64,000 nucleotides of DNA from Nitrosotalea sp. (GCA_035519555.1 DATIWG010000050.1:20040-84039); one strand, 5' to 3'. Counted from the first letter of the stretch, positions 49,483-55,750 are shown. The notes: generated by a model from the sequence alone, not told the origin. Made by a program: numbers and translations.

Positions 49483-50607
49483 ATGCCGCACAGGAAACCG
49501 ACGGAGCCCGTGACCTCGCGCCGCCGCGTGCTCGCGGCCGGCCTCGCGCTGCTGGGTCTGCCCACCACCGCCCGGAGCCGCGGGCAGGATGCGGAAGCGC
49601 GACCCGGGATGGTGAAGGGGGTCTACCTCTCCTACCACGGCGTCGGCGACCGCACGATTCGAGGGCGGGTGCTCGACCTCCTCGACCGAACGGAGCTGAA
49701 CGCGGTCGTGATCGACGTCAAGGGAGACGAGGGCTTCCTCCCGTTCGACAGTCAGGTTCCGCTCGCCCGGGAGGCCGGGGCCACGGGGAGAGTACGCGTC
49801 CGCGATTTCGACGGCATGCTGGCTCGATTGAAGGCGCAGGGCGTCTATCTCATCGCCCGGATCGTCGCCTTCAAGGACAACGTCCTCGCGCGTCATCGCC
49901 CGGGGTGGGCCATCACCGATACCGGCACCGGCTCGCTCTGGCTCGACGCCGAGCGGCTGGCGTGGCTCGATCCCTTCGAGGAGGAAGCGTGGGCCTACCC
50001 CATCGCCATCGCGACCGAAGCGGCTCGAAAGGGCTTCGACGAGATTCAGTTCGACTACCTCCGGTTCCCGACCGACGGACCGCTCGGCAAGGCGCGCTAC
50101 TCGCGATCGAGCACCCCGCCGAGCCGCCGGCAGGCCATCGGCGCGTTCCTGGAGCAGGCCCGCGCGGCGCTCCGGCCCACCGCCTCCTTGCTGGCCATCG
50201 ACGTGTTCGGCTACACCGCCTTCAATCTGGACGACACCGGAATCGGACAGGGTATCGAGAGCCTGGCGCCGCTGGTCGACGTCCTGTCCCCGATGGCCTA
50301 TCCGTCGGCCTACCACCTCGGTATCCCCGGCTACCGGAACCCGGTCACCCATCCCTACGAGGTCGTCTTCGAGACGGTGCGGAAGATGCGAGAGCGGACG
50401 GCCGGAGGGCGCGCGCAGGTGCGGCCGTGGATCCAGAATTTCCGTGACTATGCCTTCGACCGCCGGGAGTTCGGAGTCGCGGAGGTCCAGGCGCAGATGA
50501 AGGCCGCCCTCGACGCGGGAGGCAGCGGCTGGATGCTCTGGAACCCGCAGAATCGCTACACGGTCGAGGCACTGGAGCCCAGGCCCGGACCGGCGAGGTC
50601 CAGGTAG
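49483..50607 (+). CDS. Putative secreted glycoside hydrolase-like protein (DUF4015/GHL family) with Tat signal
   Basis: SRRRVLAAGLALLG signal then a TIM-barrel-like domain (VIDVKGDEG, FDEIQFDYLRFP); family assignment is tentative. Confidence 0.6.
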   Translation: MPHRKPTEPVTSRRRVLAAGLALLGLPTTARSRGQDAEARPGMVKGVYLSYHGVGDRTIRGRVLDLLDRTELNAVVIDVKGDEGFLPFDSQVPLAREAGATGRVRVRDFDGMLARLKAQGVYLIARIVAFKDNVLARHRPGWAITDTGTGSLWLDAERLAWLDPFEEEAWAYPIAIATEAARKGFDEIQFDYLRFPTDGPLGKARYSRSSTPPSRRQAIGAFLEQARAALRPTASLLAIDVFGYTAFNLDDTGIGQGIESLAPLVDVLSPMAYPSAYHLGIPGYRNPVTHPYEVVFETVRKMRERTAGGRAQVRPWIQNFRDYAFDRREFGVAEVQAQMKAALDAGGSGWMLWNPQNRYTVEALEPRPGPARSR

Positions 50608-50828
50608 TCCACGCAGGCGTCGAGCGTCGTCAGCTTGGGATAGTCGGCTTCCGGAATCTCGACGTCGAGCGCGGCGTGCAGCGCGATCACGAAGTTGAGG
50701 TGGTCCATCGAGTCCAGGTCGAGCTGGTCCCGGAAAGGCACGTCGGAGGCGAGCGCGGCCACGTCGACCTCGGGCGCGATCTCGCCGAGCGTGCGCAGGA
50801 CGGTGGCCCGGATCTCGTCGCGGGTCAC
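50556..50828 (-). CDS. Acyl carrier protein
   Basis: 90 aa with 4'-phosphopantetheine motif [11 protein letters not shown]; start overlaps the E2 stop by 4 nt. Confidence 0.75.
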
Positions 50829-52000
50829 AGCCGACTCGGCTCCTGCAGCAGCCGATCCACCGCGGCCAGGAAGAGGCCGCCGCGGTGGCCGTCACTCACG
50901 CGATGATCGGCGGACAGGGTGGCGGTGACGAGGGGGCGGACGGTGACCTGCCCGTCGACGACCCACGGGCGCTCGGCGATCTTCCCGAAGCCCACGATCG
51001 CGACCTGCGGCGGGAAGATCACCCCGAAGACGCTCTCCACGCCCTGCTCGCCGAGGCTGGTGACGGTGATGGTGGGATCGGAGAGCTCCGAGCTCCGGAG
51101 CCCGCCGCTACGCGCGCGCTGGACGAGGTCGCGAAGGGCTCGCATCAGTTCGCCCACGCTCTGTCCGGCTGTGTCGTGGAGCGCCGGCGCCACGAGGCCT
51201 CCGCCGCGCAGCGAGACGGCCACCCCGACGTGGACGGCGTCGCTCCGGACCGGCTCGGTCCCGCGCCACACCGAGTTCAGCTCGGGGACCTCCCGCAGGG
51301 CCAGCGCGACGGCCTTGATCAGCAGCACGCCGTAGAGGAGGCGGTCCGGAACCGGCCGCGCGAGATTCTCCGCGGTGAGCCAGGTCATCGCCCGGTGCAT
51401 GTCGATCGTCGTCGCGAGGTAGTAGTGAGGGATCTCGCGCTTGGAGCGCGCCATCGCGGCCCCGATCGCCTGGCGCAGCCGGGCCTGCCGGTCGAGCGCG
51501 CCGCCGGGCTTCGCGGCCGCGGGCGCGGCTCTCGCGGCCGCCGCCTGCTCGATGTCCTCTCGTCGGATCGACCCACCCGGGCCGGTGCCGTGGACGGCCG
51601 CGGGATCGATCCCCAACTCGGCGGCGCGCTTCCTCGCCAGCGGCGAGATCCGGAGCCGGTCGGATGGGGCCGCCGCCGGCACGACCGCCGCCGACGGCGT
51701 GGCGATGATCGGCGCGCGTGGCGTCGGCGGCGCGGCCGTCACGGACGCGGGGACCGCGGCCGGCACCGTGTCCCGGACGATCGCGAGCACCGTGCCCGTG
51801 GGCACCGTCGCGCCCGGCTGAACGACGATCTTCTCGAGCACGCCGGGCGTGAAGACCTCGATGTCGATGAGCCCCTTGTCGGTCTCGACCACCGCGATGG
51901 TGTCGCCCCGCTTGAGCGCGTCTCCCGGCTGCTTGCGCCACTCGACGAGCGTGCCCGCGCTCATGTCCGCGGTCAGGATCGGCATCAGGAACTCAGCCAT
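50825..52000 (-). CDS. 2-oxoacid dehydrogenase E2 (dihydrolipoamide acyltransferase)
   Basis: Lipoyl domain (ETDKG), E3-binding domain and catalytic domain (DHRVSDG). Confidence 0.9.
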
Positions 52001-53938: not shown

Positions 53939-55710
53939 CGCTCCGCGTCCCCGCCCTCGAGCGTGGAGGTGTCGCCCTCGGGCAGCCCGAGCTCGCGCGC
54001 CTTGAGCAGGCGCCGCATGATCTTCCCGCTCCGCGTCTTGGGCAGGCTGGCCTGGAACGCGATCTCCTTCGGGGCGACCACGGCCCCGAGCCGGGTGCGC
54101 GCGAAGGCGAGCAGATCGCGGCGCAGCGCCTCGTTCGGCTCGTAGCCGTCCTTGAGCGAGACGAAGGCCTTGACGACCTCCATGGCGACCGGGTCGGGCT
54201 TGCCGATCACGCCGGCCTCGGCCACCGCCGGGTGCTCCATCAAGACGCTCTCCACCTCGAAGGGACCGATGAGGTGGCCGGAGCTCTTGATGACGTCGTC
54301 GGCCCGCCCCACGAACCAGAAGTAGCCGTCACGATCCCGTCGGGCGAGATCACCGGTGAGGTAGAAGCCGCCCACGAAGCACTTCCGGTAGCGCGCGGGC
54401 TCGTGCCAGTAGGCGCGGAACATGGAGGGCCACCCGGGGCGGAGCGCCAGCTCGCCCTGCACGTCGGGCGCCTCGATGACCTCGACGGCGTCCTCCCCCA
54501 CCCGGCGGACGATGGCGGCCTCCACGCCCGGCAGCGGACGTCCCATGGAGCCCGGCCGGATGTCCATGGCCGCATAGTTGGCGATCATGATCCCGCCAGC
54601 CTCGGTCTGCCACCAGTTGTCGTGGAAGGGCCGGCCGAACGCCTCGCGTCCCCAGACGACCGCCTCCGGGTTGAGCGGCTCGCCGACGCTGGCCAGGAAG
54701 CGGAGCGCGTGGAGATCGTACTTGTGCGCGAGATCGGCCCCGCTCTTCATCATCATGCGAATCGCGGTGGGCGCAGTGTACCAGACGGTCACGCGCTGCT
54801 CCTGCAGGATGCCGTACCAGCGCGCGGCGTCGAACTCGGCCTCGTCGACGATGCTCGTGATCCCGCAGGTCAGCGGCGCGATGATGCCATAGGATGTGCC
54901 GGTCACCCAGCCCGGATCCGCGGTGCACCAGAAGACGTCCCCGGGATGGAAGTCGAGCGCGAGCCGACCGGTGATGTGATGGGCCACGACGGCTTCGTGG
55001 ACGTGCACCGCGCCCTTCGGCTTGCCGGTGGTGCCGCTCGTGAAGTGCAGCAGGGCCAGGTCCTCGGGGTCGGTGGGCTCGATCGTGAAGCTCGCCTCGG
55101 CGCGCTCCATGAGGTCGCGATAGTCGCGGGTCCCGGGCACGCTGGTGGGCCGGTGATCGTCGCCGACCAGGAGCACGTGCTCCAGGTCGGGCAGCGATGA
55201 CCGGAGCGCGGCGACCTTGCGCCGGTAGAGCGACTCGGTGGTGACGAGCACGCGCGCCTGGCCGCTCGTCATCCGGACGCGGATCGGCTCGGGACCGAAG
55301 GCCGAGAACATCGGGCAGAACACGCTGCGATTCTTCAGCGTGCCGAGCGCGGCCACGTAGAGCTCGGGAATGCGGCCGGCGAGCACATACACGCGCTCGC
55401 CGGGTTCCACCCCCAGTGAGCGCAGGACGTTGGCGAAGCGGTCGGTGAGCTCGGCCAGCCGGCGGTAGGTGAAGTCGACGACCTCGCCCTTCTTGCCGAG
55501 CCAGCGCAGCGCCAGGTGCTCGCCGCGGCCGCGGGTCAGGTGGCGGTCGACCGCTTCGTGGGCGATGTTCAGCCCCCGGCCCCCGGGGAGCCCGTCGAGG
55601 GCGGCGCGCGCGCGCTCCCACGAAAACTCCTGGCAGGCGCGCGCGTAGTCACCGAGATTCGGCGCGCCGCGCGGATCTTCCGGGGACTTCCGGATCGGTT
55701 CCCAGCTCAC
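53935..55710 (-). CDS. Acetyl-CoA synthetase-like AMP-forming acyl-CoA ligase (AcsA type)
   Basis: AMP-binding motifs ([16 protein letters not shown]-like, SGK); start taken at the GTG preceded by GGAGGAGAGG. Confidence 0.85.
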
Positions 55711-55734
55711 CGATGGCCTCTCCTCCAGGTGGGG

Positions 55735-55750
55735 AGCAACCACGGTGCCA
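55735..55750 (-). promoter_or_regulatory. Candidate sigma54 promoter (TGGCAC-N5-TTGCT)
   Basis: Read on the minus strand as TGGCACcgtggTTGCT; the predicted TSS is just upstream of the Shine-Dalgarno and GTG of the acs-E1-E2-ACP operon. Confidence 0.45.

Follow-up and report, generated by a model that had tools for sequence, protein, structure and literature searches.

What does an acyl carrier protein (ACP) do at the end of a 2-oxoacid dehydrogenase operon that has no lipoamide dehydrogenase (E3)? The question is raised by five genes on a 64,000-nucleotide (nt) stretch of Nitrosotalea sp. DNA (GCA_035519555.1, DATIWG010000050.1:20040-84039), hereafter called the window, whose own positions are used for coordinates. 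This cassette encodes an AMP-forming acetate-activating ligase (Acs), the α- and β-subunits of a thiamine diphosphate (ThDP)-dependent E1, a lipoyl-bearing acyltransferase (E2), and a stand-alone ACP. An initial annotation of the locus had proposed that it generates an unusual acyl-ACP starter or extender unit. The reading that we prefer, tentatively and with somewhat less than even confidence, is that it is a stress-regulated pyruvate-oxidizing module whose E2 acetylates the dedicated ACP. We regard the cassette as a self-contained, horizontally mobile five-gene module of a dormancy/stress regulon, which in the window is σ54-driven.

All five genes lie on the minus strand, and every junction, read directly, is an overlap. 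The acs gene (53935-55710; 591 aa) shares the 4 nt ATGA with the E1α gene (52973-53938; 321 aa), which shares another 4-nt ATGA with the E1β gene (51993-52976; 327 aa). E1β and E2 (50825-52000; 391 aa) overlap by 8 nt (ATGGCTGA), and the E2 stop codon overlaps the start of the ACP gene (50556-50828; 90 aa) by 4 nt (GTGA). The initial annotation had described overlaps of 4 to 8 nt through the first four genes, followed by an E2 stop/ACP start overlap, and both descriptions hold. The 3' end of the ACP gene overlaps a convergent DUF4015 gene (49297-50607, plus strand) by 52 nt (50556-50607), and because the ACP gene ends inside this gene the operon stops at the ACP. At the other end, the acs open frame extends to 55851, homologs start near residue 48, and the GTG at 55710 is preceded by a Shine-Dalgarno sequence, GGAGGAG; the full open frame up to 55851 is probably not all coding. 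Approximately 25 nt upstream of this GTG is a σ54-type −24/−12 element, TGGCACcgtggTTGC (55736-55750, minus strand), which matches the consensus exactly.

Is the ACP part of this unit or a neighbor by chance? An ACP-seeded scan of a one-genome-per-species collection found at least 494 relatives among the 600 matches listed, of which the best 80 were examined. As a reverse test of the bias of ACP seeding, an E2-seeded scan of metagenome contigs found at least 530 among the 600 stretches listed, of which 80 loci were examined. Neighborhoods were analyzed for 85 ACP-linked loci (±10 kb), the 80 E2-seeded loci, and eight annotated plasmid loci; individual loci are numbered with the prefix L. A cassette-type E2 is directly upstream of the ACP in 80/80 ACP-seeded loci, and the order acs-E1α-E1β-E2-ACP is kept in 53 of the 56 that have enough upstream sequence. 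Seventy E2-seeded loci have downstream room: the ACP is adjacent in 65, lies 300 to 730 nt downstream in three, and is a remnant in two, these last apparent exceptions carrying a truncated open reading frame that begins like the ACP (MTEAELRKTALDTLG...). The full five-gene cassette is present in 27/27 E2-seeded loci with room for it, and in approximately 50 of the 85 ACP-linked loci the E2 and ACP genes overlap by their stop and start codons (ATGA or GTGA). Because the E2-ACP linkage holds in both seeding directions and across phyla, the ACP is a member of the module and not a chance neighbor. The initial annotation had allowed that orthologous loci might show the ACP as an unrelated neighbor; the five-gene order is instead conserved across phyla. 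The genes 3' of the ACP differ between lineages, and therefore the cassette ends at the ACP.

The best 80 ACP-seeded loci come from at least eight phyla, among them Methylomirabilota/Rokubacteria, Nitrospirota, Acidobacteriota, Gemmatimonadota, Planctomycetota, Actinomycetota, and Desulfobacterota. Across phyla, identity to the window proteins is 58 to 87% for the ACP and 58 to 86% for E2, with median identities of 76% for Acs, 76% for E1β, 66% for E2, and 67% for the ACP. Such high identities across phyla point to horizontal spread under strong constraint. Cultured organisms that carry the cassette on a plasmid or chromid are Burkholderia sp. JP2-270, Rhodococcus sp. DK17, Ralstonia wenshanensis, Cupriavidus, Sinorhizobium (S. 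fredii), Methylocystis rosea, Leisingera, and Desulfotalea psychrophila, and Paraburkholderia is also among the cultured carriers. In Desulfotalea (L170), a strict anaerobe and sulfate reducer, the cassette is on a conjugative plasmid next to TraI/TraJ, with a lipoate-protein ligase gene 3' of the ACP. The five genes of the plasmid loci are annotated singly in RefSeq, with no name for the unit. No description of the cassette was found in the literature searched, the coverage of which was incomplete, and it seems to be undescribed.

Departures from the standard arrangement were also seen. One locus (L152:5-2623) has an acs-E2-ACP variant without E1 genes between, and Leisingera (L171) has E1α and E1β fused into one 665-aa protein. 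The genes inserted into the cassette vary (pyruvate kinase, malic enzyme, a PAS-GAF kinase, a β-lactamase-like protein, Glu/Leu dehydrogenase, DUF72, a HEAT-repeat protein), and no constant sixth partner was found among them on annotation. In L002, L007, and L009 (e.g., L009:10246-12072), a second AMP-binding ligase of 609 aa with an AMP-binding_C_3 domain begins at the stop codon of the ACP gene; a nicotinate phosphoribosyltransferase (NAPRTase) gene comes next in L002, and of these loci only L002 has gene calls for the stretch.

Which substrate and which acyl group would the module handle? Acs scores 927 bits against the NF003313 acetate–CoA ligase model (cut-off 729). Its best solved relative is 9g79, a 572-aa acetyl-CoA synthetase of the AcsA type (E 4e-170), with an identity of approximately 55% as judged by eye from the alignment. 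The acetate-pocket Trp (NWWQTE) and the A10 catalytic Lys (SGKIMRR) are kept, in agreement with the earlier assignment to the AcsA-type AMP-forming ligases. The equivalent of Salmonella enterica Acs Arg526 is replaced by Leu in 53/53 cassette Acs proteins in which the motif (SGHL[IV]G) was found, including the window protein (SGHLIG, residues 477-482, 54265-54282); solved Acs enzymes, the B. subtilis type among them, have Arg here. We did not use this replacement as a sign of ACP use, since the same Arg is also conserved in the adenylation domains of nonribosomal peptide synthetases (NRPSs), which work with carrier proteins.

E1α, the ThDP-binding subunit (PF00676), scores 450 bits against TIGR03182 (PDH_E1_alph_y; cut-off 394), which we take to be an equivalog specific for pyruvate dehydrogenase (PDH) and built to exclude the acetoin branch; its nearest solved structure is human PDHA1 (5e-75). 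E1β, with Transket_pyr and Transketolase_C domains, scores 409 bits against NF006667 (cut-off 321). The E1 scores as the pyruvate dehydrogenase type and not as the acetoin or transketolase-like branch. Within the operon, a pyruvate kinase gene is found between E1β and E2 in three loci (L060:6766-8706, L080:2897-4861, L095:3468-5384), and a malic enzyme gene between acs and E1α in one (L149:2705-4045); these are independent operon insertions of pyruvate-forming enzymes. The inserted pyruvate kinase is a 655-aa form with an N-terminal extension of roughly 340 aa. In approximately 10 further loci one of these two enzymes is encoded directly after the ACP. Pyruvate kinase has this position in L024 and L084, malic enzyme is encoded 3' of the ACP or of OsmC in L003, L010, L011, L013, L026, L092, and L131, and phosphoenolpyruvate (PEP) synthase is encoded approximately 1 to 4 kb upstream of acs in Rhodococcus and Leisingera. 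Pyruvate is the predicted E1 substrate because the profile hidden Markov model (HMM) assignment and the pyruvate-forming neighbor genes agree. Given the PDH-type E1, the kept acetate pocket of Acs, and a genomic context of dormancy, stress, and repair, the acyl group handled is likely plain acetyl.

The E2 consists of a lipoyl domain (PF00364), a peripheral subunit-binding domain (PSBD; PF02817), and an acyltransferase core (PF00198). Its lipoyl Lys42 is found in ETDK42G and its core contains DHRVSDG, so that the intact DHRxxDG motif with the catalytic His, noted in the initial annotation, is present. The nearest solved structures are mitochondrial-type E2p enzymes (1e-62); the protein falls below every NCBIfam E2 equivalog cut-off (best 227 versus 445). 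These sub-cut-off scores and a uniformly shorter C-terminus make E2 the divergent member of the cassette. The window E2 ends in LLQEPSRL before the stop codon (50825-50850), and cassette E2s end in LLQEPxxL, i.e., three residues after the last Pro, in 73/80 E2-seeded loci and in nearly all ACP-seeded loci. No exact match to the window E2 was present in the contig collection. In HMMER alignments, the last residue of E2 pairs with residue 229 of 233 of E. coli E2o, 435 of 439 of 9njt, approximately 424 of 428 of 3duf_I, approximately 645 of 647 of human E2p, and approximately 628 of 630 of E. coli E2p. It thus ends two to four residues short of the chain ends of the solved E2s aligned to it. The hydrophobic C-terminal tail of E2 is the inter-trimer "knob", and removal of the tail from the Thermoplasma E2 reportedly gives active trimers. 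Because the inter-trimer tail is missing, the cassette E2 may form trimers in which the acceptor channel is exposed.

The ACP matches PF00550, with Ser40 in a DSMD motif, and resembles fatty acid synthase-type and mitochondrial ACPs (E values of approximately 1e-7 to 1e-8). It is below all NCBIfam ACP cut-offs, with a best AcpP-model score of 36.7 versus 71. Ser40 is invariant in 81/81 cassette ACPs, and an AlphaFold model gives a four-helix bundle with a predicted local distance difference test (pLDDT) score of 85 and Ser40 at the start of helix II. The stand-alone ACP with a phosphopantetheine site that had been annotated is accordingly a real gene, and not the degenerate reading frame without a conserved Ser that was considered as a possibility. 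An identity as the AcpP of fatty acid synthesis was considered and rejected: the protein is below the AcpP cut-offs, there are no fab genes nearby, and no FabH was found. More than 1750 ACP homologs were returned; at 50% identity, 961 clusters have E ≤ 1e-10. The window ACP is 8 aa longer than the usual 82 aa, and its tail (residues 84-90) is disordered in the AlphaFold model. Two other residues are unusual for an ACP: Cys72, in helix IV (codon 50613-50615), is found in 78/81 cassette ACPs and is missing from three more distant family members (P0173, P0246, P0270), and His51 is found in 74/81. A distant ACP relative in a context unrelated to the cassette (L087:648-1454) is joined to the N-terminus of what appears, by eye, to be a Pat-type GNAT acetyltransferase, after which the frame degenerates.

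How would the lipoyl arm be re-oxidized? A tblastn search of the window (64 kb) and of both sets of loci (85 ACP-linked, 80 E2-seeded) with E. coli Lpd gave no match, and no E3 is annotated in the eight plasmid loci. That no E3 is linked is thus a constant feature of the cassette, and it agrees with the initial annotation, which had reported E3 as absent. The premise stated alongside it, of E3 as the usual last gene of PDH and acetoin operons, holds only in part, as E3 is commonly shared between complexes in trans.

A candidate for an alternative electron acceptor is OsmC, which is encoded in 31/85 loci and adjoins the cassette in the same orientation in 28/85. It is immediately 3' of the ACP in 15 Rokubacteria-type loci, with its start codon overlapping the ACP stop codon in L003 (L003:10246-10677), and immediately 5' of acs in 13 Acidobacteriota loci (including L028). 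Behind a cassette-type E2, an ACP-OsmC fusion forms one 239-aa polypeptide (L086:518-1237), which was found on two contigs. The OsmC link is facultative, because the window has no OsmC. An analogous 2-oxoacid-driven, Lpd-independent peroxidase has reportedly been described in Mycobacterium tuberculosis. Protein-bound lipoyl groups, but not monothiols, serve as reductants of Ohr/OsmC peroxidases (PMC5384416), and for this reason OsmC could re-oxidize a pyruvate-reduced lipoyl-E2 without E3. Other enzymes of lipoyl and carrier metabolism were also sought by tblastn: LipB was not found in the window or the 85 loci, nor LipA in all 165 loci. Neither FabH nor Sfp was found in the window and 85 loci, where AcpS was present in only one of the 85. 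A BirA-like ligase of L001, used as a query, matched only L001.

The surroundings of the cassette are those of a dormancy/stress island. In a neighbor census of the 85 loci, universal stress proteins (Usp) were found in 35, a dienelactone-hydrolase-type α/β hydrolase in 25, CBS(-BON) proteins in 23, and Hsp20 in 13; GroEL, PolX, LigA, PCMT, RtcB/archease/RtcA/RlaP, and PGA_cap are rarer recurrent neighbors. The island in the window encodes Hsp20, PCMT, LigA, PolX, three Usp proteins, PGA_cap, at least five CBS proteins, NadE, BON, and an M50-CBS protease, as well as GroEL, a YbaK-like editing protein, an archaeal-type S-adenosylmethionine synthetase, RtcA, and baeRF. It spans 9796-22725, 44215-49568, and 55873-63890. 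Related loci carry RtcB, NAPRTase, a phosphoribosyltransferase, PfkB, and class II ribonucleotide reductase (RNR). Rhodococcus sp. DK17 encodes a GAF histidine kinase paired with a response regulator 4 kb from the cassette, and the Ralstonia neighbors include a B12-dependent RNR, formate-hydrogenlyase-type genes, and acetate kinase. The M. tuberculosis DosR regulon contains Usp, HspX, Rv2626c (CBS), Rv2625c (M50), Rv2631 (RtcB), Rv0570 (class II RNR), Rv0571c, Rv0573c (NAPRTase), Rv0574c, and PfkB (PMC5309233), and the island is a near gene-for-gene counterpart of it. The lxa locus of Burkholderia cenocepacia, which has a similar island gene set, contains Pta and AckA as an acetate/ATP step (PMC3721108). 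The cassette itself is not in the M. tuberculosis regulon (PMC5309233) or the J2315 lxa locus (PMC3721108), as searched, and the window island has σ54 promoters, not DosR regulation.

Three exact σ54 −24/−12 matches are present in the window against 0.11 expected. In addition to the element of the cassette, they are at 21458-21472 (minus strand), upstream of a Usp gene (20929-21420), and at 48606-48620 (minus strand), upstream of a CBS gene (48156-48575). All three lie 25 to 40 nt 5' of the start codons of the Usp gene, the CBS gene, and acs. Sites with one mismatch, at 10984-10999 (minus strand) and 44136-44151 (plus strand), precede Hsp20 and NadE. The window island looks like one σ54 regulon. 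The same σ54 element is found 5' of acs in L001, L006, and L007, and a TGGTCY-N5-YTTGCA variant in eight Nitrospirota loci, which supports the σ54 control that had been suggested for the operon. No GAFTGA-type activator is encoded in the window, and one occurs within 10 kb of the cassette in five loci only.

How might these parts work together? In the reading that we prefer, E1 would decarboxylate pyruvate and reductively acetylate the lipoyl-lysine of E2, as the HMM assignment and the pyruvate-forming neighbors suggest. The acceptor for the acetyl group on E2 would then be the phosphopantetheine thiol of the co-translated holo-ACP, either in place of free coenzyme A (CoA) or in addition to it. 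We propose this transfer because the E2-ACP pairing is obligate, reciprocal, and translationally coupled, and because QncL-to-QncM transfer offers a precedent. The E2 also shares the chloramphenicol acetyltransferase (CAT) fold with NRPS condensation domains, which act between carrier proteins. The reduced lipoyl arm would be re-oxidized in trans by a housekeeping lipoamide dehydrogenase or by an adjacent OsmC. Acs, besides E2 the only thioester-handling enzyme in the unit, probably interconverts acetyl-thioester and acetate. It could recycle the carrier (acetyl-ACP + AMP + PPi → acetate + ATP), or it could feed acetate into the same acetyl pool as a second input; an AMP-forming Acs is reportedly known to run in reverse in Syntrophus, and in the lxa island Pta-AckA would be the counterpart of such a recycling Acs.

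Several observations weigh against this reading. The role of the ACP as acceptor is suggested by gene association alone, and among the best 150 of the 961 ACP cluster representatives there is no E2-ACP or Acs-ACP fusion. The catalytic motifs of E2 are fully canonical, so that E2 may use CoA, and in Acs the equivalents of S. enterica Arg194 and Arg584, which bind the CoA 3'-phosphate, are retained, as fits a CoA-using enzyme. No phosphopantetheinyl transferase (PPTase) is linked to the cassette, AcpS being present in just the one locus, and no conserved acetyl-ACP consumer was found near it in the census and annotations. The window has no OsmC, and the absence of E3 applies to the window and the loci; an E3 may be encoded elsewhere in the genome. 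We also consider, as an unlikely extension, that the cassette is a closed pyruvate-to-acetate machine for non-growing cells, needing neither free CoA nor E3. In that case the ACP would be loaded by E1/E2 and freed again by Acs working in reverse on acetyl-ACP (AMP + PPi → ATP), and the reduced lipoyl arm would pass its electrons to OsmC or a different dithiol-dependent stress enzyme, not to NAD+. If true, pyruvate oxidation would yield ATP and peroxide-reducing power while leaving the CoA and NADH pools untouched.

The same parts can be read without an acetylated carrier. In an ordinary CoA-dependent supply module, Acs and a PDH-type E1/E2 would both make acetyl-CoA, the former from acetate and the latter from pyruvate, E3 would act in trans, as it often does when shared between complexes, and the ACP would be an accessory subunit with a structural, regulatory, or acetyl-sensing role. 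Such a module is consistent with E1 and Acs scores above the pyruvate dehydrogenase and acetate–CoA ligase cut-offs, with the intact catalytic motifs and PSBD of E2, with the CoA 3'-phosphate Arg residues kept by Acs, and with the lack of an acetyl-ACP user in the census or annotations. It leaves unexplained why every lineage keeps a phosphopantetheine carrier with an invariant Ser (81/81) in obligate, translational coupling to E2, and why E2 is the sole divergent component, and we regard it as possible but doubtful. Alternatively, the ACP could be chiefly an adaptor or redox partner that brings OsmC to the lipoyl arm of E2, making a pyruvate-driven, E3-independent hydroperoxide reductase. This would explain the missing E3 and would suit the 15 loci with OsmC directly after the ACP, the 13 with OsmC directly before acs, the ACP fusion in L086, the use of protein-bound lipoyl and not monothiol electrons by Ohr/OsmC, and the occurrence of Cys72 in 78/81 cassette ACPs and its absence from the distant P0173, P0246, and P0270. 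However, OsmC is missing from approximately two thirds of the loci, from the window, and from the eight plasmid loci, the carrier Desulfotalea is a strict anaerobe, and an adaptor needs no phosphopantetheine, yet the Ser is invariant; the adaptor role is therefore a slim prospect.

We give similarly little credence to an acetoin/acyloin dehydrogenase of the AcoABC type, with Acs reactivating acetate derived from released acetaldehyde under σ54 control. Its σ54 promoter, an Acs of the B. subtilis AcsA type, and an E1α-β/E2 architecture like that of B. subtilis AcoABC are all present, but E1α is above the cut-off of the PDH-specific TIGR03182, and pyruvate kinase and malic enzyme are encoded in or beside the operon. 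AcoL, AcoX, AcoR, and butanediol dehydrogenase, which were not searched by name, are not among the recurrent neighbors or the plasmid annotations, and the GAFTGA activator is within 10 kb in only five loci and not in the window. The unusual starter or extender unit of the initial annotation corresponds to a Qnc/Scl-type system, which would supply a natural-product assembly line with glycolyl-ACP or another unusual acyl-ACP. The parts list fits, with a ThDP-dependent E1, a lipoyl-E2, and a stand-alone ACP, and hand-over of an acyl group from E1/E2 to the ACP remains the most economical reading in view of the linkage and the Qnc/Scl precedent. The unusual acyl group is the part of the proposal that we do not retain. 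The suggested check for ketosynthase (KS) and PPTase partners gave, near the loci, no FabH-type KS or Sfp and AcpS in 1/85. No KS, acyltransferase, NRPS, polyketide synthase, or condensation partner is recurrent next to the cassette in the neighbor census and the eight plasmid annotations. With a PDH-clade E1, a kept acetate pocket in Acs, and the dormancy island context, an assembly-line role is highly improbable. We judge just as improbable a role of the ACP as octanoyl donor for lipoylation of E2 via LipB/LipA. Octanoyl-ACP is the normal donor for E2 lipoylation, and a lipoate-protein ligase is encoded 3' of the ACP on the Desulfotalea plasmid; against this, neither LipB (window and 85 loci) nor LipA (165 loci) was found, the substrate of an LplA-type ligase is free lipoate as opposed to acyl-ACP, the cell's housekeeping AcpP could serve as donor, and the cassette has no linked fab genes.

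If E2 does acetylate the ACP, how would the module compare with known systems? In quinocarcin (QncN/QncL/QncM) and scleric acid (SclQ1-4) biosynthesis, an E1/E2 pair loads an ACP with a glycolyl unit (PMC6335953). By parts, the likeness extends to a ThDP-dependent E1-like enzyme, an E2 with lipoyl and acyltransferase functions, a stand-alone ACP, and no dedicated E3 (PMC6335953). The Qnc and Scl systems are located in NRPS clusters (scl with a PPTase) and convert ketose phosphates to the glycolyl unit, whereas the cassette has a PDH-clade E1, Acs within the unit, no assembly line nearby, a stress/dormancy context, and a spread over at least eight phyla. The E1α, E1β, and E2 proteins are nearest to the mitochondrial/alphaproteobacterial-type PDH complex, with the lipoyl, PSBD, and catalytic domains intact; in contrast to that complex, the cassette has no linked E3, its E2 is far below cut-off and two to four residues shorter at the C-terminus, and an ACP is coupled to it. 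B. subtilis AcsA/AcoABCL is similar in its Acs (approximately 55% identity to the AcsA-type 9g79), and aco E1α-β/E2 operons are σ54-controlled, as the cassette appears to be. It differs in that the cassette has a PDH-type E1, an ACP, and Leu at the Arg526 position of Acs, with no AcoL or AcoR found. In the Lpd-DlaT-AhpD-AhpC system of M. tuberculosis, a lipoylated E2 reduces a peroxidase system. The Ohr/OsmC-lipoyl-E2 systems offer a further likeness, as a lipoylated E2 would reduce a thiol peroxidase (PMC5384416). The known lipoyl-peroxidase systems draw electrons from NADH via Lpd and have neither ACP nor Acs. For the Acs-ACP pair only, citrate lyase ACP and the acetate:SH-ACP ligase CitC, an AMP-forming ligase with a private acetyl-carrying shuttle, may serve as a mechanistic analogy; the two systems share neither prosthetic group, nor carrier fold family, nor enzymes. 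The cassette would then act like a known kind of system, a 2-oxoacid dehydrogenase that loads a carrier protein, and would stand apart from it in its substrate clade, its constant Acs, its context, and its broad mobile spread.

If E2 uses protein-bound phosphopantetheine, the cassette would be the first carrier-acceptor 2-oxoacid dehydrogenase of central or stress metabolism, beyond natural products, and such a system would be very widespread. The cassette is found in uncultured phyla that are abundant in soil and groundwater (Rokubacteria, Nitrospirota, Acidobacteriota), and its cultured carriers make the function directly testable. The cassette is a recurrent metabolic part of DosR/lxa-like dormancy islands, whose metabolic logic is poorly understood.

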